From sequence record MZ234025.1: a stretch of 64,000 nucleotides of DNA; one strand, written 5' to 3'. Origin of the DNA: Escherichia phage vB_EcoM-172859UKE1. Every line of letters starts with the position of its first letter. Position 1 is the stretch's first letter. Below, piece by piece: positions 43,819-51,403 of the stretch. A model generated the notes under the pieces. That model was not told the DNA's origin, searched no databases, and worked only from the letters and a program-made list of their open reading frames with translations. Made by a program: the position numbers and the translations under genes.

Positions 43819-44130
43819 ATGGTTTATGTATATGCAATAGTTTATCGAGATATGGAAGGATTTACTGTCCCGGTTCCACTTGATGAGCATCGTCCTGCAG
43901 TATTTTTTAGAAAAGATATTGCAGATAAAGTTTTCGATACTTTGAAAACACAGTATAAAACGGATTTAAAAATGGGAGTTCTAAGAATGGTCGAAACTCC
44001 GCGTAAGTTCTGGTTTAATAAGCTTGAAATGAAACACGTTAAACTAGATGCGGAGACGCAAAAATTGTATCAACGAATCCTGGACACAGGACGTATTGTT
44101 AGTATTCCAATTGCAGGGACTTTACGATGA
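43819..44130 (+). CDS. hypothetical protein
   Basis: 103-aa ORF immediately upstream of dda. Confidence 0.5.
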   Translation: MVYVYAIVYRDMEGFTVPVPLDEHRPAVFFRKDIADKVFDTLKTQYKTDLKMGVLRMVETPRKFWFNKLEMKHVKLDAETQKLYQRILDTGRIVSIPIAGTLR

Positions 44131-45440
44131 CATTTGATGATTTGACTGAAGGCCAGAAAAACGCCTTCAACGTTGTTATGAACGCTATTAAAGAAAAGAA
44201 ACATCACGTAACTATTAATGGGCCTGCTGGTACAGGTAAAACAACCCTTACTAGATTCATCGTTGAAGCCCTTATTTCTTCTGGAGAATCAGGTATTATT
44301 TTAGCAGCCCCTACACATGCTGCTAAAAAGGTTCTAAGCAAACTTGCGGGTCAAGAAGCATCGACTATTCATAGCATTCTTAAAATCAACCCAACTACAT
44401 ACGAAGAAAACGTATTATTTGAACAGAAAAAGGTTCCAGACTTAGCCTTGTGTCGTGTACTGTTATTTGATGAAGCGTCAATGTGCGACCGTTCTCTGTT
44501 TAAAATAATGTTAGCTAGTATCCCTAAATGGTGTACAGTAATTGGAATCGGCGACCGATGCCAGATTCGTCCGGTAGACCCAGGCGAATCAACTGCGTAT
44601 CTAAGTCCTTTCTTCACTCACAAAGACTTCGTGCAATGCAACCTTACAGAAGTTAAACGTAGCAATGCACCAATTATTGATGTTGCGACTGATATTCGTA
44701 ACGGCAAATGGATTTACGATAAAGTAGTTGATGGGCACGGTGTTCACGGATATACAGACCTTAAATCGTATATGATGAACTATTTTAACGTCGTTAAAAC
44801 TCCTGAAGACCTTTTCGAAAATCGAATGATGGCATTCACAAATAAGTCGGTGGACAAGTTAAATTCAATTATTCGCCGAAAACTTCTTGAAACAGAAAAA
44901 CCATTTATTAAAGACGAAGTCATTGTTCTACAAGAGCCGTTTACTAAGACATATAAGCTAGATGGTAAAAATATGACCGAAATGCTTTTCAATAACGGTC
45001 AATTCGTTCGTATTCGAGATGCTGTAGAAACTTCTACATTCGTTAAAGCACGTGGTGTTTCAGGCGAATATATGATACGATACTGGAATCTTACAGTAGA
45101 AACGTATGGGGATGATGAAGAATACATCCGCGAAGATATAAAGGTTATTTCTTCTGAAGAAGAGCTTTATAAATTCAATTTGTTTTTGGCTAAGACCGCA
45201 GAAACATACAAATTTTGGAATAAAGGTGGTAAAGCTCCATGGAGCGAATTCTGGGATGCTAAACGTATGTTCACTAAGGTGAAGGCACTACCAGTATCAA
45301 CCTTCCATAAGGCCCAGGGTATGTCTGTTGACACGGCCTTTGTTTATACACCGTGTATCCATTACGCCGATTCAGAATTAGCTAAACAGTTATTGTATGT
45401 CGGCACAACTCGTGGTCGGTTTGACGTCCATTTTATTTGA
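44127..45440 (+). CDS. dda: DNA helicase Dda (SF1)
   Basis: 437 aa; MTFDDLTEGQKNAFN...HHVTINGPAGTGKTTL near-identical to T4 Dda. Confidence 0.95.
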   Translation: MTFDDLTEGQKNAFNVVMNAIKEKKHHVTINGPAGTGKTTLTRFIVEALISSGESGIILAAPTHAAKKVLSKLAGQEASTIHSILKINPTTYEENVLFEQKKVPDLALCRVLLFDEASMCDRSLFKIMLASIPKWCTVIGIGDRCQIRPVDPGESTAYLSPFFTHKDFVQCNLTEVKRSNAPIIDVATDIRNGKWIYDKVVDGHGVHGYTDLKSYMMNYFNVVKTPEDLFENRMMAFTNKSVDKLNSIIRRKLLETEKPFIKDEVIVLQEPFTKTYKLDGKNMTEMLFNNGQFVRIRDAVETSTFVKARGVSGEYMIRYWNLTVETYGDDEEYIREDIKVISSEEELYKFNLFLAKTAETYKFWNKGGKAPWSEFWDAKRMFTKVKALPVSTFHKAQGMSVDTAFVYTPCIHYADSELAKQLLYVGTTRGRFDVHFI

Positions 45441-45449
45441 GAGAAAATT

Positions 45450-46127
45450 ATGAGCACTGATGTTATTATAGATTTTGAAACATTCGGCAATACATCAAAA
45501 GCGGCTGTTATTGACCTTGCGGTTATTGCATATAATTCCGACCCTGAAGTTGTTGAATCATTTGAAGAACTTGTTCAACGAGGTAAGCGAATTAAATTTA
45601 ATTTAGCTTCTCAGAAAGGGAAGCGAGTTTTCGCTAAATCCACTATGAAATGGTGGAAAGAACAATCGGCTGAAGCACGTAAAAACTTGGCTCCGTCTGA
45701 AGACGATGTCACTACGCTTGAAGGCATTAAAATCTTTTTAGACTATTGCCGAGCTAATAAAGTTGACCAATGGAAATCACAGATGTGGTGTCGTGGTATG
45801 AGCTTTGACTTCCCGATATTGGTCGATTTGATTCGTGACCTCTATCGTGATGAAGGTGTTCCTGAACCAGAGATTGATACTGATAAATTAGAACCGGTTA
45901 AATTCTGGGCTCAACGTGATATTCGTACGGCAATCGAAGCTTACTCGTTGACACGAGGATTAAGTATGTGTCCATTACCGATGGGTACGCTAAAAGGATT
46001 CGTTGCCCATGATAGTATTCATGATTGTGCTAAAGATATTTTGATGTTAAAATATGCTCAGCGTTATGCGCTTGGTCTTGAAGATGTCCCTGAGAATCCT
46101 GACCCGTTAAGTGTAAAACAGCGATAA
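45450..46127 (+). CDS. dexA: exonuclease A (DexA-like, DEDD-type)
   Basis: 225 aa; N-terminal VIIDFETFG exonuclease motif; follows dda as in T4. Confidence 0.7.
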   Translation: MSTDVIIDFETFGNTSKAAVIDLAVIAYNSDPEVVESFEELVQRGKRIKFNLASQKGKRVFAKSTMKWWKEQSAEARKNLAPSEDDVTTLEGIKIFLDYCRANKVDQWKSQMWCRGMSFDFPILVDLIRDLYRDEGVPEPEIDTDKLEPVKFWAQRDIRTAIEAYSLTRGLSMCPLPMGTLKGFVAHDSIHDCAKDILMLKYAQRYALGLEDVPENPDPLSVKQR

Positions 46128-46132
46128 AATCA

Positions 46133-46162
46133 GTTTACAACCAAGGACGGTTGGAGTATAAT
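46133..46162 (+). promoter_or_regulatory. early promoter (PeSL-like) GTTTAC, hairpin CAACC-aaggac-GGTTG, TATAAT
   Basis: GTTTAC 46133-46138, TATAAT 46157-46162. Confidence 0.6.
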
Positions 46163-46192
46163 CTTTCTATCTTAACCAAACGGGAAACAATT

Positions 46193-46687
46193 ATGAATAT
46201 CAATACTACGTCTACTTACATCCTGAAAGACGAAAAACAAATCAACTGGTACGGTGCTTCAGTGCGAGCTTATGAAAAGTTTTGTGAAATTTTAGGTGCC
46301 ACTCAAGGTAATAGTTTCACTATTGTTAACTTCATTAAACAAGTTGAAGGCCCTTGGTTATTCTTAGAAATTAAAAATTCATACGGTACAATTTCTACTA
46401 CTGCCATCCCAAGCACCGACTTTGAACTGTTGATTGAAGAAGCACCTGTTAAAGATGGTCTCCACTTTGATATGGATATCGTTTGTATGTACGGTACTCT
46501 GATTAAGCCTATTGAGCCTACTGATTTATTGTGTAAATATGTTTCAATTCGACGCCCATTCGATGGTCCAGTAAATGGATGGGTAACTGATCAGTGGATT
46601 GAAGATGGGGTTGAACTTCTGAACGTTGTTCATGCCGGTGATTTTAGTGTGGTTCCACGTAGTGCAGTAGTTAATATTCTAAATTAA
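46193..46687 (+). CDS. hypothetical protein, member of tandem paralog family (C-terminal DQWIEDG...GDF motif)
   Basis: 164-aa ORF from ATG at 46193 (track start is TTG inside promoter). Confidence 0.5.
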   Translation: MNINTTSTYILKDEKQINWYGASVRAYEKFCEILGATQGNSFTIVNFIKQVEGPWLFLEIKNSYGTISTTAIPSTDFELLIEEAPVKDGLHFDMDIVCMYGTLIKPIEPTDLLCKYVSIRRPFDGPVNGWVTDQWIEDGVELLNVVHAGDFSVVPRSAVVNILN

Positions 46688-46690
46688 TGT

Positions 46691-46719
46691 TGTACATCCA
46701 AGGATGGATGGAGTATAAT
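46691..46719 (+). promoter_or_regulatory. early promoter (PeSL-like) TGTACA, hairpin CATCC-aaggat-GGATG, TATAAT
   Basis: TGTACA 46691-46696, TATAAT 46714-46719. Confidence 0.6.
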
Positions 46720-46748
46720 GAATTCAATTTAACAAAGAGAGAAAAATT

Positions 46749-47204
46749 ATGATTACTATTGGTGAAATTAAGCGTGTATCAACTGCATCCCGGTCTAAAG
46801 CCGCAGGTCGTCTGGTTGAAGTGGTAGGACTTCGCACAAATGGCATGGGACGCATTAAAGAAGTTAAAGTTCGAATCATTCCTAGTTTTGGACGTCAGGA
46901 TACTCAGCACGCTTACGTAAGTCCTAAATTCTTGGAAACTCCTGTGAGCGCTCATTTTGCTTCTACTGAACCTAATGCACAGTTCAAATGGGCCTTGTGT
47001 AAAGGTGTTGAATTCCAGACTGATAAAGAATTTGACTTCATCGATGAATACGGTTATCCAAGCAAAACTGATACTATGTGCGGCTTCATTAGTGACCAAT
47101 GGGTTGAAGATGGTGAAAAGTTATACAATATCGTATTCTTAGGTGACTTCCGAGTTGTTAAAGAATCTGAAATCACTCGTTATGTGTCTCCTCGTAAAGC
47201 TTAA
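46749..47204 (+). CDS. hypothetical protein, tandem paralog family member
   Basis: 151 aa; shares STASRSKAAGRLVEV and C-terminal ISDQWVEDGEKLYNIVFLGDF with the next ORF. Confidence 0.5.
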   Translation: MITIGEIKRVSTASRSKAAGRLVEVVGLRTNGMGRIKEVKVRIIPSFGRQDTQHAYVSPKFLETPVSAHFASTEPNAQFKWALCKGVEFQTDKEFDFIDEYGYPSKTDTMCGFISDQWVEDGEKLYNIVFLGDFRVVKESEITRYVSPRKA

Positions 47205-47213
47205 GGAATTATT

Positions 47214-47633
47214 ATGAATATTGTAAATCTCTCTACAGGTGATTACGTATATGTATCTGTTGCTTCTCGCTCTAAAGTTGCCGGGAAGTTGGTTGAAGTT
47301 CTTTCTGTGAGTGATCCGGTTTTTGGTCGTAACCAAGTTAAAGTTCGTGACGCCGATGGTAACATTGGTTACGTTAAAAGCCAATTTATTGAACCAGAAG
47401 AAAAAGCGTTCAAATGGAAACTGGGCAGATCAGTTTTAGTTGTAAAAGACTACGAGTTCACCATTGCCGCTGCGACAGATGGAACACCGTGGACAACGAA
47501 TCAAGTTGCTGGTTTTATTTCGGACCAATGGGTGGAAGATGGTGTTAAGCTTTATAACATTGTTTTCGCTGGGCAGTTCATGGTAGTTCCTGAGTTCCAA
47601 ATCAAAAAATATTGTCCAGCATCTTTTGCATAA
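47214..47633 (+). CDS. hypothetical protein, tandem paralog family member
   Basis: 139 aa; SVASRSKVAGKLVEV and ISDQWVEDGVKLYNIVFAGQF. Confidence 0.5.
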   Translation: MNIVNLSTGDYVYVSVASRSKVAGKLVEVLSVSDPVFGRNQVKVRDADGNIGYVKSQFIEPEEKAFKWKLGRSVLVVKDYEFTIAAATDGTPWTTNQVAGFISDQWVEDGVKLYNIVFAGQFMVVPEFQIKKYCPASFA

Positions 47634-47637
47634 AGTT

Positions 47638-47666
47638 GTTTACTTCTCCTCCGGTTTTGATATTAT
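47638..47666 (+). promoter_or_regulatory. early promoter GTTTAC / TATTAT
   Basis: GTTTAC 47638-47643, 17-bp spacer, TATTAT 47661-47666. Confidence 0.55.
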
Positions 47667-47692
47667 AACCATATCAACCAGAGGAGAATAAT

Positions 47693-48217
47693 ATGTTAGT
47701 TTACCGCGTAGAACGTAGTTTTTGTACTCAACGTGAATCATTACCAGGAATTGCTATCGAAGATGGTAAAGCCGTCAGAATTTGGGAAACCTCTTGGAAT
47801 AAAGAACCTCGTTCGCCGTATGGTTGGTCGGGCACCGACAACTCTGAAGAAACATGGGAGTTCCTTGATAAGCATGGAATACTCTCAGGTAACTTCTACC
47901 ATCACGGCGACAACTATAATGTCCCTAATCGTCCTACAGTAAATGAAGACAAACTCCTTGAACAAAATATCTTAAGATACTATAGAATTGAGCACACATT
48001 TGAATTGAGTGAAGATTGGGCTCAAGGGTTCTATTTTGGATTTGAAAGTGTTGACGCGGTTTATGCATGGTTTGATGACCAGGTGGATGTTGAACTCTTG
48101 AAAGCTAAAGGATACTACATCGCGGTCTATGAAGCACCTGATTTCATCCTCGGAAGTTGTCAATTAATGTTTAGACGTTCATTGGCAGAACAAGTTGATT
48201 TTATTTTGCTAAAATGA
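47693..48217 (+). CDS. hypothetical protein
   Basis: 174-aa ORF after AGAGGAGAATAAT RBS. Confidence 0.5.
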   Translation: MLVYRVERSFCTQRESLPGIAIEDGKAVRIWETSWNKEPRSPYGWSGTDNSEETWEFLDKHGILSGNFYHHGDNYNVPNRPTVNEDKLLEQNILRYYRIEHTFELSEDWAQGFYFGFESVDAVYAWFDDQVDVELLKAKGYYIAVYEAPDFILGSCQLMFRRSLAEQVDFILLK

Positions 48218-48251
48218 TGTACAACAACTATGGTCTATGATACTATAGACC
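48218..48251 (+). promoter_or_regulatory. early promoter TGTACA / TACTAT within inverted repeat GGTCTAT/ATAGACC
   Basis: TGTACA 48218-48223, 17-bp spacer, TACTAT 48241-48246. Confidence 0.55.
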
Positions 48252-48274
48252 TATCAAAACAAGAGGAGAATATT

Positions 48275-48502
48275 ATGAAACGTCAAATCATTAAAAACGT
48301 AACTACTGATTCAAACATCGATGAGTTTGAAGATGTTCTGTTTAATCCTGATTTAGTTGTTGTACAGAAAAACTGGACCGAATTTTTATGCTACACTGAA
48401 GTGGTTTACGTTTATGAAAAACTCGGCGATGAAATGCCTATCTATGGTATCTTCCGTGAAATCACTGAAAACGGTACAACTTATTGGAAGGAAACTTACT
48501 AA
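48275..48502 (+). CDS. hypothetical protein
   Basis: 75-aa ORF from ATG after AAGAGGAGAATATT. Confidence 0.45.
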
Positions 48503-48915
48503 TGGCTAATAAATTCCGCGTTAACTCATGGTACCAATTTATAGATAAACGTGCCCAAGAAGAGTTTATTAAAGACCACACTGATAATGGGATTTATGCA
48601 CGACGTCTTGGCATGGAACCATTTAAAGTATTAGATGTTGACCATCTTGGTCGTCCTACTAAAATTGTGACATCTACTGGCACGGTTGGATACGCAACAG
48701 GCGGTGATATCCTTGATGAAAACTTTATCTGGCTCTCCACGAATGAAGCAGAGTTCTTTGACGAAGTTGAAAATCCATATCTAGCGTCCGAAGAGCAAGA
48801 TTCTGGTGAACTTGACGAATTGTCTGAATTTCCGGTGATGACGATTACTATCGAAAATAACGACCAGGCATGGTCTTTGTATCAAATGTTGAAAGCTCAC
48901 TTTAAGGAACAATAA
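48502..48915 (+). CDS. hypothetical acidic protein
   Basis: 137-aa ORF from TAATG-coupled ATG. Confidence 0.45.
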
Positions 48916-49094
48916 TGCCGTTATACGACTATAAATGTCAATCTGAAGATTGTGGTCATGAATATGAAAAAATTAAAAGGATTTCTGAACGAGAAAACGA
49001 TGTTTGCCCTGAATGTCATCGTCTGTCTACTCGTCGGGTTTCTGCTCCTAAACATGTGAACGGTGGTTTTTACGACTTACTTAAGAAGGGTTAA
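48915..49094 (+). CDS. zinc-ribbon protein (FmdB-like CxxC...CPxC)
   Basis: 59-aa ORF (below the ORF-track cutoff): [19 protein letters not shown]...DVCPECH. Confidence 0.4.
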   Translation: MPLYDYKCQSEDCGHEYEKIKRISERENDVCPECHRLSTRRVSAPKHVNGGFYDLLKKG

Positions 49095-49096
49095 TT

Positions 49097-49522
49097 ATGG
49101 CTTTTAAAGGTTTTGAAGTTGGTAAGAAATATCGTATTATCAAAGGACAGGAAGATAATTTCTTGAGAATTCTTAATACGACTGGTAAACGTCTTAATAC
49201 TAATCTGCATACTACTTTATTGTCCAAAGATTTTATTGTGGAAGAGATGATTGGTTACGGCGTTTCTGTGATTGCTGTAGAAGCCGTAGGCGATTATGGC
49301 CGAACTATTCATAGTATGCAAGGTGATATTCTGCTTTATGGTGCAGAATTTAAATTCTTTGAAGAAGTTCCGGAACCAGATACAGCTGTCGATTTCAAAA
49401 AAGGCTCTATAGAATTTGTTGATGGTTCGGTGATCGTATCAGGCGATGTGGTCATTACAGTTAAAAGTGAACAAGGGCGTTTGGCTGCAATTGATGCACT
49501 TCAGAAAATTAAATTTAAATAA
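49097..49522 (+). CDS. hypothetical protein
   Basis: 141-aa ORF ending at a terminator. Confidence 0.5.
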   Translation: MAFKGFEVGKKYRIIKGQEDNFLRILNTTGKRLNTNLHTTLLSKDFIVEEMIGYGVSVIAVEAVGDYGRTIHSMQGDILLYGAEFKFFEEVPEPDTAVDFKKGSIEFVDGSVIVSGDVVITVKSEQGRLAAIDALQKIKFK

Positions 49523-49540
49523 GGGCTTCGGCCCTTTTTG
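49521..49540 (+). terminator. rho-independent terminator
   Basis: GGGC-ttcg-GCCC hairpin followed by TTTTT. Confidence 0.7.
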
Positions 49541-49563
49541 CTTTAGATTTCGGATGATAGAAT
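49537..49563 (+). promoter_or_regulatory. MotA-dependent middle promoter (TGCTTTA + TAGAAT) for gene 39
   Basis: TGCTTTA 49539-49545, 12-bp spacer, TAGAAT 49558-49563; shares CGGATGATAGAAT with promoter at 14821. Confidence 0.6.
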
Positions 49564-49585
49564 ACCTTCATAACGAGGAGACAAC

Positions 49586-51403
49586 ATGATTAAAAATGAA
49601 ATTAAGGTATTGTCAGATGTAGAACATATTAAGAAACGCAGTGGCATGTATATTGGTTCTTCGGCCAAAGAAGCCCACGAGCGTTTTTTGTTTGGTAAAT
49701 ATCAACAAGTTGAATATGTTCCTGGTCTGGTTAAATTAATCGATGAGATTATTGACAACTCGGTTGATGAAGCTATTCGTACATCATTTAAGTTTGCAAA
49801 TAAAATTGATGTGCAAATTAAAAATAATCAAGTTTCGGTGGAAGATAACGGACGTGGTATTCCTCAAGGTTTAGTTACCGACCAAAATGGTGAACAGATT
49901 CCTGGGCCTGTAGCAGCCTGGACTATTCCAAAGGCTGGTGGTAACTTTGGCGATGACTCTGAACGCAAGACTGGTGGTATGAACGGCGTCGGGAGTAGTT
50001 TAACTAATATCTTCTCTACGTTGTTTACAGGCATCACGTCAGATGGCGAAAATGAAATCACTGTTAACTGTTCAAACGGAATGGAAAACAAATCATGGTC
50101 TTCTAAGAAATCTAAAGGTAAAGGCACTAAAGTAATCTTCACTCCTGATTTCACTTCATTTGAAGAGCATAATTTATCTCAAATTTATTTAGATATTACT
50201 TTAGACCGACTTCAAACATTGGCAGTCGTTTATCCTGACATCAAGTTCACATTTAATGGTAAAAAGGTTGATGGTAATTTTAAACGATTTGCTAAACAAT
50301 TTGGTGAAGATAACATCATTCAAGAAAATGATAAAGTCTCTATAGCATTCACAACATCACCAGATGGCTTCCGTCATTTAACTTATGTGAATAACATCCA
50401 TACTAAAAATGGTGGTCATCATGTTGAATGCGTAATGGATGATATCTGCGAACATCTTTTGCCAGGTATTAAAAAGAAATATAAGGGTATTGAAGTCACT
50501 AAAGCTCGTGTTAAAGAATGTCTCACAATGTTGATGTTTATTAGAGACATGAGCAATATGCGTTTTGATTCTCAGACTAAAGAACGTTTAACGTCAACGT
50601 ATGGTGATATTCGTAATCATATCCAATTAGATGCTAAGAAAATTGCTCAGGCACTTCTTAAAAACGAAGCCTTGATTATGCCTATTGTTGAAGCAGCATT
50701 AGCTCGTAAATTGGCGGCAGAAAAGGCTGCGGAAACTAAAGCAGCTAAAAAGGCAACTAAAGCTAAGGTTCATAAGCATATTAAAGCTAACCAATGTGGT
50801 AAAGACGCAGATACGACATTGTTCTTAACAGAAGGTGATTCGGCAATTGGTTATCTCATTGATGTTCGTGACCGTGAACTACACGGCGGATTCCCATTAC
50901 GTGGTAAGGTGATGAATAGCTGGGGTATGTCGTATGCTGATATGATGAAGAACAAAGAGCTCTTTGATATCTGTGCTATCACAGGTCTTATTCTTGGTGA
51001 AAAGGCAGAGAATACGAACTATCGTAATATTGCAATTATGACCGATGCCGATCATGATGGTCTTGGAAGTATTTATCCGGCTTTGCTTGCTTTCTTTAGT
51101 AATTGGCCCGAATTGTTCGAACAAGGACGTATTCGCTTTGTTAAAACGCCTGTAATTATTGCACAAATTGGCAAAACTCAAAAATGGTTTTATACTGTAG
51201 CTGAGTATGAAGAAGTTAAAGATACACTGCCTAAGCATAGTATTCGATACATCAAGGGATTGGGCTCCCTTGAAAAGTCAGAATATCGTGAAATGATTCA
51301 GAATCCTGTGTACGACGTAGTTAAACTTCCTGAAAATTGGAAAGAACTCTTTGAAATGTTGTTGGGTGATGATTCAGAACTTCGTAAAGAATGGATGTCC
51401 TAA
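49586..51403 (+). CDS. 39: DNA topoisomerase II large subunit (gp39 fused with gp60-equivalent C-terminus)
   Basis: 605 aa; GHKL ATPase motifs plus TOPRIM-like region in one uninterrupted ORF. Confidence 0.9.
   Translation: MIKNEIKVLSDVEHIKKRSGMYIGSSAKEAHERFLFGKYQQVEYVPGLVKLIDEIIDNSVDEAIRTSFKFANKIDVQIKNNQVSVEDNGRGIPQGLVTDQNGEQIPGPVAAWTIPKAGGNFGDDSERKTGGMNGVGSSLTNIFSTLFTGITSDGENEITVNCSNGMENKSWSSKKSKGKGTKVIFTPDFTSFEEHNLSQIYLDITLDRLQTLAVVYPDIKFTFNGKKVDGNFKRFAKQFGEDNIIQENDKVSIAFTTSPDGFRHLTYVNNIHTKNGGHHVECVMDDICEHLLPGIKKKYKGIEVTKARVKECLTMLMFIRDMSNMRFDSQTKERLTSTYGDIRNHIQLDAKKIAQALLKNEALIMPIVEAALARKLAAEKAAETKAAKKATKAKVHKHIKANQCGKDADTTLFLTEGDSAIGYLIDVRDRELHGGFPLRGKVMNSWGMSYADMMKNKELFDICAITGLILGEKAENTNYRNIAIMTDADHDGLGSIYPALLAFFSNWPELFEQGRIRFVKTPVIIAQIGKTQKWFYTVAEYEEVKDTLPKHSIRYIKGLGSLEKSEYREMIQNPVYDVVKLPENWKELFEMLLGDDSELRKEWMS

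Follow-up and report, generated by a model that had tools for sequence, protein, structure and literature searches.

The window, i.e. the whole stretch of DNA that was analysed, comprises 64,000 nt of Escherichia phage vB_EcoM-172859UKE1 (MZ234025.1) and is 99.7% identical to Mosigvirus pEK20. The source phage is a Mosigvirus (JS09/RB69-like, T4-type coliphage). Three consecutive genes on the plus strand, which an earlier note on this DNA had described as a tandem array of 164, 151 and 139 aa, are located where that note placed them. ORF1 (46193..46687, 164 aa) is an intact motB.1 gene, ORF2 (46749..47204, 151 aa) is an ortholog of motB, and ORF3 (47214..47633, 139 aa) encodes a second MotB paralog (“MotB-like”). 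The order of genes in the window is dda-dexA-ORF1-ORF2-ORF3-motB.2-cef-goF, and the dexA-cef neighbourhood is kept in T4, RB69, ime09 and distant metagenomic relatives. In the annotations of JS09 and RB69, the same genes are named MotB, MotB-like and motB.1. The trio thus corresponds to early genes known from previous work as motB.1, motB and motB-like, and its paralogy is not new.

The assignment of the locus to an early-gene region, made previously, agrees with the early promoters of sigma-70 type that are present in the dexA-cef interval. The promoter of ORF1, TTTACA-N17-TATAAT (46134..46162, plus strand), agrees with the consensus at 11 of 12 positions, and the promoter in front of ORF2, TGTACA-N17-TATAAT (46691..46719, plus strand), does so at 10 of 12. 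Both are found inside a 52-nt direct repeat with 73% identity between its copies (46136-46187 and 46693-46744). ORF3 begins 9 nt past the stop codon of ORF2, with an AAGGA ribosome-binding site in front. Since no separate promoter precedes ORF3, ORF2 and ORF3 are probably co-transcribed from the second promoter.

The earlier note had assigned promoter-hairpin cassettes to two of the genes, and its promoters were borne out better than its hairpins. The stems in the promoter spacers of ORF1 and ORF2 comprise just 4–5 bp (5 bp before ORF1), and folding of the intergenic regions showed no gain over shuffled sequence (z 0.21 before ORF1 and -1.05 before ORF2), leaving significant RNA or DNA hairpins in these spacers unsupported. 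In the cassette upstream of motB.2, the -10 box is covered by a strong stem (z -4.5). In architecture, the cassettes resemble the PeSL (promoter-early stem-loop) elements (PMC2839356) of T4-type phages (Arbiol 2010; Comeau 2014). In those elements, a repeated intergenic unit carries an early promoter TTTACW-N17-TAYWAT with a stem between the -35 and -10 boxes or over the -10 box, followed by a ribosome-binding site and a start codon, and the units flank non-essential early genes, the order of which varies between phages. The stems of the ORF1 and ORF2 cassettes sit where those elements have theirs, but they are short and not significant alone. It seems that they fit the published PeSL elements, albeit with weak hairpins. 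A search for known RNA families in positions 44000-50000 returned a single sub-threshold match to Y_RNA (23.5 bits; gathering score 38), which was taken as chance.

The three proteins share a C-terminal block, which reads VTDQWIEDGVELLNVVHAGDF in ORF1, ISDQWVEDGEKLYNIVFLGDF in ORF2 and ISDQWVEDGVKLYNIVFAGQF in ORF3, with the common core G-[WF]-[VI]-[TS]-D-Q-W-[VI]-E-D-G ... L-x-N-[IV]-V ... G. The GDF ending previously ascribed to the block does not extend to ORF3, where GQF is found. The pattern D[QR]W[VIL][EG]xG occurs exactly three times in the six frames of the whole 64-kb window, and the columns L, F, D, W, E, G, L, N, V and G are invariant across 19 diverse C-terminal domains, including those of all three window proteins. 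The N-terminal block noticed earlier in ORF2 and ORF3 is also present (STASRSKAAGRLVEV and SVASRSKVAGKLVEV, respectively). The BLASTP comparison of ORF2 with ORF3 yielded an E-value of 2e-29 (43% identity over 145 aa); ORF1 matched ORF2 with E 4e-10 over 36 aa and ORF3 with E 3e-11 over 29 aa. Smith-Waterman alignments gave z = 14.7, 15.4 and 42.6 against 2000 residue shuffles, none of which reached the real score, and the profile-profile comparison of the MotB and MotB.1 sub-families (hhalign) gave a probability of 98.7% (E 4e-16, 51 columns), confined to the C-terminal domain. Together with the Pfam matches given below, these values rule out chance or composition as the origin of the shared blocks, the very alternative against which the earlier note had proposed an alignment check.

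The N-terminal part of ORF1 is not significantly similar to its counterparts in ORF2 and ORF3; therefore, ORF1 is a paralog at the domain level only, and triplication of a whole gene is ruled out. In ORF1, the common C-terminal domain is joined to an LSm-like N-terminal domain that is unrelated to those of the other two proteins, which points to domain shuffling. The domains of ORF2 and ORF3 resemble each other at a level of 44–50%, no closer than they resemble MotB proteins of other genera. This rules out a recent local duplication, and the duplication behind ORF2 and ORF3 would be either old or horizontally acquired. Of the local duplication with divergence suggested previously, the paralogy is retained and the simple triplication is not.

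All three proteins score above the gathering score of 25 bits for the Pfam family PF17613 (motB), with 34.6 bits for ORF1, 124.7 for ORF2 and 81.8 for ORF3, and PHROG 1671 and 2333 were matched as well (ORF1 to phrog_2333 with E 3.5e-81). ORF1 aligns with T4 MotB.1 with E 4e-26 (37% identity over 134 aa), and a Foldseek search of BFVD with its model found the T4 protein P39415 (E 5.7e-9). ORF2 is 47% identical to T4 MotB (E 3e-41), and ORF3 is 39% identical to it. The S-[RK]-S-K-x-A-G motif and the KOW-like N-terminal domain are present in ORF2 and ORF3 and absent from ORF1. Judging by the sequences, ORF1 is placed in the MotB.1 branch, and ORF2 and ORF3 are assigned to MotB proper (category 1 of Patterson-West 2021).

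The distribution of the family among T4-like phages, which the earlier note had proposed to check, was examined; the genes are annotated as MotB and MotB.1 in near-identical genomes. The MotB family is confined to T4-like phages and is always located upstream of cef. A profile search with the C-terminal domain among 1.84 billion representatives returned 29 matches; two of them (P0184 and P0187) were spurious repeat proteins, and the rest were small proteins of T4-like phages. The “MotB-like” copy of the ORF3 type has already been annotated in about 200 phage records besides those of RB69 and JS09. No solved structures related by sequence were found at E up to 10. The combination of the shared C-terminal domain with differing N-terminal domains was described by Patterson-West et al. 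2021 (PMC7827196), who also reported two motB genes and one motB.1 gene in RB69. Since a Pfam entry for the family exists, T4 MotB has been characterised and the paralogy is published, also for the sister phage RB69, the trio carries little weight as a discovery.

The closest described arrangement is that of RB69, a phage of the same genus, where the genes motB, RB69ORF010c and motB.1 with RB69ORF012c follow the identical order dexA-motB.1-motB-motB-like-motB.2-cef. The literature notes a 29-aa peptide in RB69 besides the two motB genes and motB.1. Two 1-nt insertions break motB.1 of the RB69 reference into parts of 132 aa and 29 aa, whereas the window contains a single intact ORF of 164 aa. 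T4 MotB (NP_049626; PF17613) resembles ORF2 in the two-domain plan, the place upstream of cef and the early promoter, and ORF3 has the same two-domain plan. However, the linker IETIDTSHVGVD of T4 MotB, of roughly 12–25 residues, is missing from both ORF2 and ORF3, and T4 possesses one motB copy while the window phage possesses two in tandem.

ORF1 consists of an acidic LSm-like N-terminal domain (about residues 1–85), a disordered linker and a C-terminal domain of the MotB.1 type (residues 108–164; 46514..46684, plus strand), in which the DQW(I/V)EDG block is situated. The protein has a pI of 4.6 and a net charge of -9. In the AF2 model (pLDDT 78.6), the N-terminal domain shows strands at residues 8–11, 42–49, 55–61, 67–73 and 80–83 and a helix at residues 26–37, with pLDDT of about 80–87, compatible with a five-stranded bent antiparallel β-sheet. 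The N-terminal domain of MotB.1 has been described as an LSm-like fold and grouped with GoF and Frd.2 (Kim 2025, PMC12152347); BLASTP similarity between ORF1 and GoF of the window was not significant. Like T4 MotB.1 (category 2 of Patterson-West 2021), ORF1 has the LSm-like domain followed by the MotB.1-type C-terminal domain, but it differs by an extra motif, FDMDIVCMYGTLIKP (residues 92–106; 46466..46510, plus strand), which is short and conserved, in the linker. The linker is predicted with low confidence (pLDDT below 50 at residues 87–93 and 100–108), and the motif recurs at varying positions in family members of 145–250 aa.

As was found by a megablast search of phage records, MotB.1 of the T4 reference contains only 119 aa and its gene carries a 1-nt insertion, whereas other T4 records encode 143 aa. 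The reference motB.1 thus appears to be frameshifted, and the insertion appears to be unique to the reference record. Exact-pattern scans of IMG/VR with the frameshifted and the intact T4 alleles both gave 0 matches and were uninformative. The published MotB.1 constructs derive from this apparently frameshifted reference and are probably truncated. Since the published 119-aa protein is apparently frameshifted, the function of MotB.1 merits re-testing with the intact form of 143–164 aa.

ORF2 comprises a KOW-like N-terminal domain (residues 1–62) with a pI of 11.3 and a net charge of +8, followed by the C-terminal domain (residues 79–151). ORF3 is likewise built from these two domains, with a shorter linker between them, and has a pI of 6.3 and a net charge of 0. 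In both proteins, the KOW-like barrel carries the S-R-S-K-x-A-G loop; the pLDDT of the second AF2 model, besides that of ORF1, is 87.5. The strongly basic N-terminal domain is kept by ORF2 only, and the near-neutral pI of ORF3 differs from the pI of 9.2 of T4 MotB. The gap in charge between the tandem MotB copies suggests sub-functionalisation.

Even where the N-terminal domains differ, the shared C-terminal domain hardly varies between proteins. An HHpred analysis proposed a cold-shock-like OB-fold for this domain of MotB (PMC7827196). In the AF2 models, however, the topology is β1-β2-β3-β4, a 3-10 helix and β5, with strands of ORF1 at residues 116–119, 127–137, 140–147 and 150–155 and, after the 3-10 helix, 159–161. 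The arrangement of an OB-fold (β1-β2-β3-helix-β4-β5, with OB-fold structures as the nearest neighbours) is not seen in these models, and the domain models as an SH3/Tudor-like barrel rather than a classic OB-fold. Its charge ranges from acidic to neutral, and aromatic residues are abundant. With the small SH3-like barrels of the Tudor, KOW, PWWP and chromo types (e.g. 53BP1 tandem Tudor, Spt5 KOW, NusG), sequence identity is just 9–22%; the resemblance concerns the fold rather than demonstrated homology, and no evidence of an aromatic cage or of methyl-lysine reading was seen.

The preferred interpretation is that the trio represents the motB.1, motB and motB-like early genes of a Mosigvirus and that ORF2, by orthology to T4 MotB, performs a DNA-coating and H-NS-related role; this is considered likely. 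DNA is reportedly compacted by MotB, a result said to be that of Son et al. 2021 in NAR. T4 MotB is an abundant early protein (PMC6070864, PMC7827196) that is toxic to the host, binds DNA non-specifically, co-purifies with H-NS and StpA, and doubles the burst size (PMC6070864). It alters the H-NS footprint, and 75 host genes are up-regulated, of which roughly one third belong to the H-NS regulon (PMC7827196). By the same orthology, ORF2 would be produced abundantly from the first minute of infection onwards and would bind double-stranded DNA, host or phage, at high density and without sequence preference. It would then override the binding pattern of H-NS and StpA, and the resulting de-repression of H-NS-silenced genes would raise the phage yield. 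The suggestion of a host-takeover or anti-defence role made in the earlier note is consequently sustained for takeover, through T4 MotB, and not for dedicated anti-defence beyond countering H-NS silencing.

As for the part of MotB that binds DNA, the authors of the T4 work held either domain possible (PMC7827196). On the basis of the models and the domain charges, we argue that the basic N-terminal barrel is a more plausible DNA binder in the MotB ortholog than the C-terminal domain, so that the DNA-contacting part of ORF2 would be its strongly basic barrel. The shared C-terminal barrel would more likely be a common interaction or oligomerisation module than a DNA-binding surface. DNA coating is not simply transferable to ORF3 and ORF1, because neither is basic; they may be sub- or neo-functionalised relatives with different N-terminal heads on the same C-terminal function. 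Since the tandem copies differ strongly in charge, Mosigviruses lend themselves naturally to telling DNA coating apart from the family's other activity.

A tentative and not very probable extension of this interpretation is that the DQW(V/I)EDG domain, instead of being the DNA-binding OB-fold of the literature, is an acidic, aromatic-rich Tudor/SH3-like module that docks onto one conserved partner, either a host nucleoid protein such as H-NS/StpA or, through hetero-oligomerisation, another member of the family. In that case the paralogs would act as a set of three at the same nucleoid complex, with a basic KOW-like head for DNA, a neutral KOW-like head and an acidic LSm-like head, possibly for RNA. 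If so, the null phenotypes of T4 MotB.1 would stem partly from the frameshifted reference, which is without the last three strands of the C-terminal domain.

It is doubtful, though conceivable, that at least one protein of the trio, especially ORF1/MotB.1, acts on RNA as a chaperone or stability factor, with the LSm-, KOW- and Tudor-like barrels serving as RNA-binding modules. The N-terminal domain of ORF1 is orthologous to that of T4 MotB.1, which is classed with GoF, and GoF(D25Y) stabilises an mRNA (PMC12152347). Many RNA-associated barrels are found among the structural neighbours, and an acidic protein such as ORF1 is unlikely to be a non-specific DNA coater; its N-terminal head may be RNA-directed. 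However, an acidic protein is no obvious RNA binder either, and no RNA-binding motif was identified. In addition, an RNA reporter assay responded little to MotB.1, and deletion of motB.1 in T4 gave no phenotype (PMC12152347), although the construct was probably truncated.

It is quite unlikely that the paralogs are dedicated anti-defence proteins, each directed against a different host immune system, with duplication driven by an arms race. The early region is hyperplastic, with copy number, N-terminal domains and gene order varying between phages, and MotB counters H-NS silencing, which may be regarded as a defence. Nevertheless, no similarity to known anti-defence proteins was seen, and the C-terminal domain, instead of evolving fast, is extremely conserved. 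The ORF3 lineage is 84–100% identical across about 200 phages, and T4 MotB raises the burst size on ordinary laboratory hosts (PMC6070864).

Highly improbable is the reading of all three proteins as classical transcription regulators acting on RNA polymerase or specific phage promoters, which is suggested by the GenBank labels “transcriptional regulator” and “modifier of transcription” and by the resemblance of the KOW-like N-terminal barrel to the KOW domains of NusG and Spt5, which contact the transcription machinery. The Pfam KOW profile (PF00467) was not matched at E up to 1. The DNA binding of T4 MotB is without sequence specificity, and an RNA-seq comparison of a T4 motB-amber mutant with the wild type found no effect on early and middle genes and mild changes in only a few late genes (PMC6070864, PMC7827196).

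The three neighbouring plus-strand genes at 46193-46687 (ORF1, 164 aa), 46749-47204 (ORF2, 151 aa) and 47214-47633 (ORF3, 139 aa) belong to the MotB family of T4-type phages. All of them scored above the curated cut-off of 25 bits of Pfam PF17613 (motB), with 34.6, 124.7 and 81.8 bits, respectively, and the PHROGs assignments agreed. Direct comparison with T4 identified ORF1 as the ortholog of MotB.1 (37% identity over 134 aa, E 4e-26) and ORF2 as the ortholog of MotB (47%, E 3e-41); ORF3 is a second MotB, with 39% identity to T4 MotB. The next gene, ORF4 (47693-48217, 174 aa), corresponds to T4 MotB.2 (34%) and has no relation to ORF1-ORF3. The cluster is preceded by dda (44127-45440) and dexA (45450-46127), and ORF4 is followed by cef and then goF. 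The JS09 RefSeq annotation lists dda, dexA, "motB.1", "MotB", "MotB-like protein", "motB.2", cef and goF, and RB69 has the same order. The 4.2 kb surrounding ORF1-ORF3 is 99.7% identical to Escherichia phage vB_EcoM-pEK20 and 96-99% identical to more than 100 further Mosigvirus records (JS09/RB69-like T4-type phages).

Patterson-West et al. (2021) divided 102 homologs between MotB proper and MotB.1-like proteins, two groups with a common C-terminal domain and differing N-terminal domains, suggested a duplication, discussed the presence of more than one copy in several phages, and described two motB genes, one motB.1 and a 29-aa peptide in RB69 (PMC7827196). Kim et al. (2025) later assigned the N-terminal domain of MotB.1 to an LSm-like fold that it shares with GoF and Frd.2 (PMC12152347). 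The family that the cluster belongs to is known, and so is its gene arrangement, which earlier work has explicitly described for this genus. The earlier note, which had seen here duplicated and diverged early genes of a host-takeover type, was right in spirit but missed the identity of the family.

Its coordinates, lengths and quoted motifs were all correct on re-checking. ORF2 and ORF3 align over their full length (43% identity, E 2e-29), and of ORF1 only the C-terminal 29-36 residues align with ORF2 and ORF3 (E 4e-10 and 3e-11). The local alignment scores lay 14.7, 15.4 and 42.6 SD over the mean of 2000 shuffles, none of which scored as high; local alignment with shuffles found no similarity between the N-terminal parts of ORF1 and ORF2/ORF3. 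Profile-profile comparison of the sub-families gave a single match, in the C-terminal domain only (98.7% probability, E 4e-16, 51 columns), and translating the window in all six frames yields the core motif exactly three times. These results rule out a similarity that does not go beyond composition, the outcome that the note had named as refuting its proposal. The proposed paralogy holds over the whole length for ORF2 and ORF3, but ORF1 is related to them at the level of a domain, a relationship that the note took for paralogy of the whole gene.

AlphaFold2 models were built with family alignments for ORF1 (mean pLDDT 78.6, with linker residues 87-108 below 50) and ORF3 (pLDDT 87.5, pTM 0.73). 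In both, the shared domain consists of strands b1-b2-b3-b4, a 3-10 helix and b5, with b3 and b4 joined by a tight turn; the predicted strand order is SH3-like and not the b3-helix-b4 order of an OB-fold. No domain described as cold-shock or OB-fold was present among the best 60 structure matches. The OB-fold proposed by means of HHpred for the MotB C-terminal domain (PMC7827196) is therefore unsupported by these models. A KOW-like MotB N-terminal domain is supported by the models at the level of the fold; there was no sequence match to Pfam KOW, and no relative has a solved structure. The first Foldseek matches against viral models were MotB.1 and MotB proteins, including T4 P39415. The low-confidence linker of ORF1 contains the motif FDMDIVCMYGTLIKP (residues 92-106, window 46466-46510). 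Many family members carry related motifs of the form D-x-D-[VI]-x-x-[MA]-Y-x-x-x-[IVL]-x-P, located either between the two domains or ahead of the N-terminal one; T4 MotB.1, ORF2 and ORF3 have none. The linker motif may be a docking peptide.

Two reference copies of motB.1 appear to be frameshifted. The T4 reference gene (NC_000866.4/AF158101.6, 2292-2651, minus strand) has an extra G within the DQWIEDG codons, because of which the annotated protein (119 aa, "13.8 kDa", UniProt P39415) ends ...GGWVTDQWIGRWR; the sequence that would complete the conserved domain, EDGVELLNVVHAGEYSVVPRSAVVAILN, follows in the +1 frame. The extra G is found only in the two copies of the T4 reference record. In 13 other T4-named records motB.1 is 1 nt shorter, and both of those inspected, MT984581 and HM137666, annotate it as intact (143 aa). 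Since the MotB.1 constructs in the literature were designed from NC_000866.4, they probably end before the last three strands of the C-terminal domain. The RB69 reference gene (NC_004928, 3877-4373, minus strand) has two 1-nt insertions about 60 nt apart relative to ORF1, which break it up into a 132-aa protein, annotated as such, and a 29-aa peptide listed in the literature as "category 3"; the insertions are either sequencing errors or mutations of the laboratory strain.

Orthologs of ORF3 (at least 80% identity) were found in 207 phage records, and MotB-type matches in 779. The trio is also present in Tequatrovirus ime09, with motB.2 at its T4 position. When 1.84 billion cluster representatives were searched with a profile built from 19 diverse C-terminal domains, only 29 proteins matched, two of them spurious repeat proteins, and the most distant genuine members are encoded directly upstream of cef in T4-like contigs. 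The MotB family has a narrow distribution and a fixed genomic position. Its MotB.1-type C-terminal domain hardly varies and is joined to N-terminal regions of very different length and sequence, including KOW-type and duplicated LSm-like heads, in proteins of 126-251 aa, which points to domain shuffling. ORF2 and ORF3 share 44% identity in the N-terminal and 50% in the C-terminal domain, which is no higher than their similarity to the MotB proteins of other genera; their duplication is therefore old, or the second copy was gained laterally. Three metagenomic proteins, P0148, P0149 and P0151, join an ORF2- or T4-type MotB N-terminal domain to an ORF3-type C-terminal domain, and in contig L007 such a chimera (1373-1894) is the sole MotB-type gene ahead of cef. 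Such chimeras could have arisen when tandem copies underwent unequal crossing-over near the FKW junction, or could represent an ancestral form.

T4 MotB is expressed early and abundantly, is toxic in E. coli, binds unmodified and glucosyl-hmC DNA tightly and sequence-independently, and increases burst size 2-fold without significantly affecting the phage transcriptome (PMC6070864). It dominates the H-NS footprint at proV and upregulates 75 host genes, with the H-NS regulon accounting for about a third of these (PMC7827196). Later reviews count it among nucleoid-associated proteins, here encoded by a phage, and credit it with compacting DNA and relieving H-NS silencing. By orthology, a function of this type is the best account for ORF2. 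The N-terminal barrel of ORF2 is highly basic, with a pI of 11.3 and a net charge of +8, against acidic or neutral pI values of 4.6-6.4 for the shared C-terminal barrel. The whole ORF3 protein has a neutral pI of 6.3, and ORF1 an acidic one of 4.6 with a net charge of -9. Because of these charges, the N-terminal barrel of ORF2 is proposed to contact DNA. The C-terminal barrel, with a D-x-W-x-E-x-G hairpin and an N-x-V strand invariant among the 19 diverse domains, may have a common role in protein contact or oligomerisation. On this reading, ORF3 and ORF1 would be relatives that have diverged in function and would not simply add to the dose of a DNA-coating protein.

ORF1 and ORF2 each follow a strong sigma-70-type promoter, which matches the consensus at 11 of 12 positions for ORF1 (46134-46162) and at 10 of 12 for ORF2 (46691-46719). 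Both promoters lie in a 52-nt direct repeat (46136-46187 and 46693-46744, 73% identity) covering the -35 box through the ribosome-binding site. ORF3 has its own AAGGA site but no promoter and starts 9 nt past the stop codon of ORF2; it is therefore probably co-transcribed with ORF2. The promoter-hairpin cassettes claimed earlier are confirmed as regards the promoters, but the hairpins were over-read: they are 4-5 bp stems within the promoter spacers, and shuffled sequence folds just as well as the intergenic regions containing them (z 0.21 and -1.05). The placement of these weak stems between -35 and -10 is that published for promoter-early stem-loop (PeSL) cassettes of T4-type phages, which have the T4-type consensus TTTACW-N17-TAYWAT and stems that are likewise short (PMC2839356; PMC4122927). 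Together with the motB.2 cassette, both 52-nt cassettes are candidate PeSL elements, which have been proposed as drivers of gene shuffling in T4-type phages. The order is dexA-motB.2-motB.1-motB(-motB-like)-cef in T4 and ime09, and dexA-motB.1-motB-motB-like-motB.2-cef in the window (46193-48217) and RB69. This difference between the genera is consistent with cassette shuffling at repeated promoter units.

Upstream of motB.2, within 47639-47695, lies a strong stem-loop at 47644-47688 (-19.2 kcal/mol, z -4.5) that was more stable than every shuffle. The GAGGAG ribosome-binding site forms its 3' arm, paired with the upstream arm, and its loop holds the -10 box of motB.2's own promoter, TTTACT-N16-TATTAT. 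The ribosome-binding site would be hidden in read-through transcripts and not in those started at motB.2's own promoter; such a design is known for other T4 genes. For cef, the longest ORF (48230-48502, 90 aa, start at 48230) probably overstates the length of the gene. At 48258-48277 there are a ribosome-binding site and an ATG that are 90% identical to those of ORF4, and cef homologs are annotated at 75 aa, so the real start is likely 48275. The 5' arm of the motB.2 stem-loop is 89% complementary to the cef ribosome-binding region (48252-48270).
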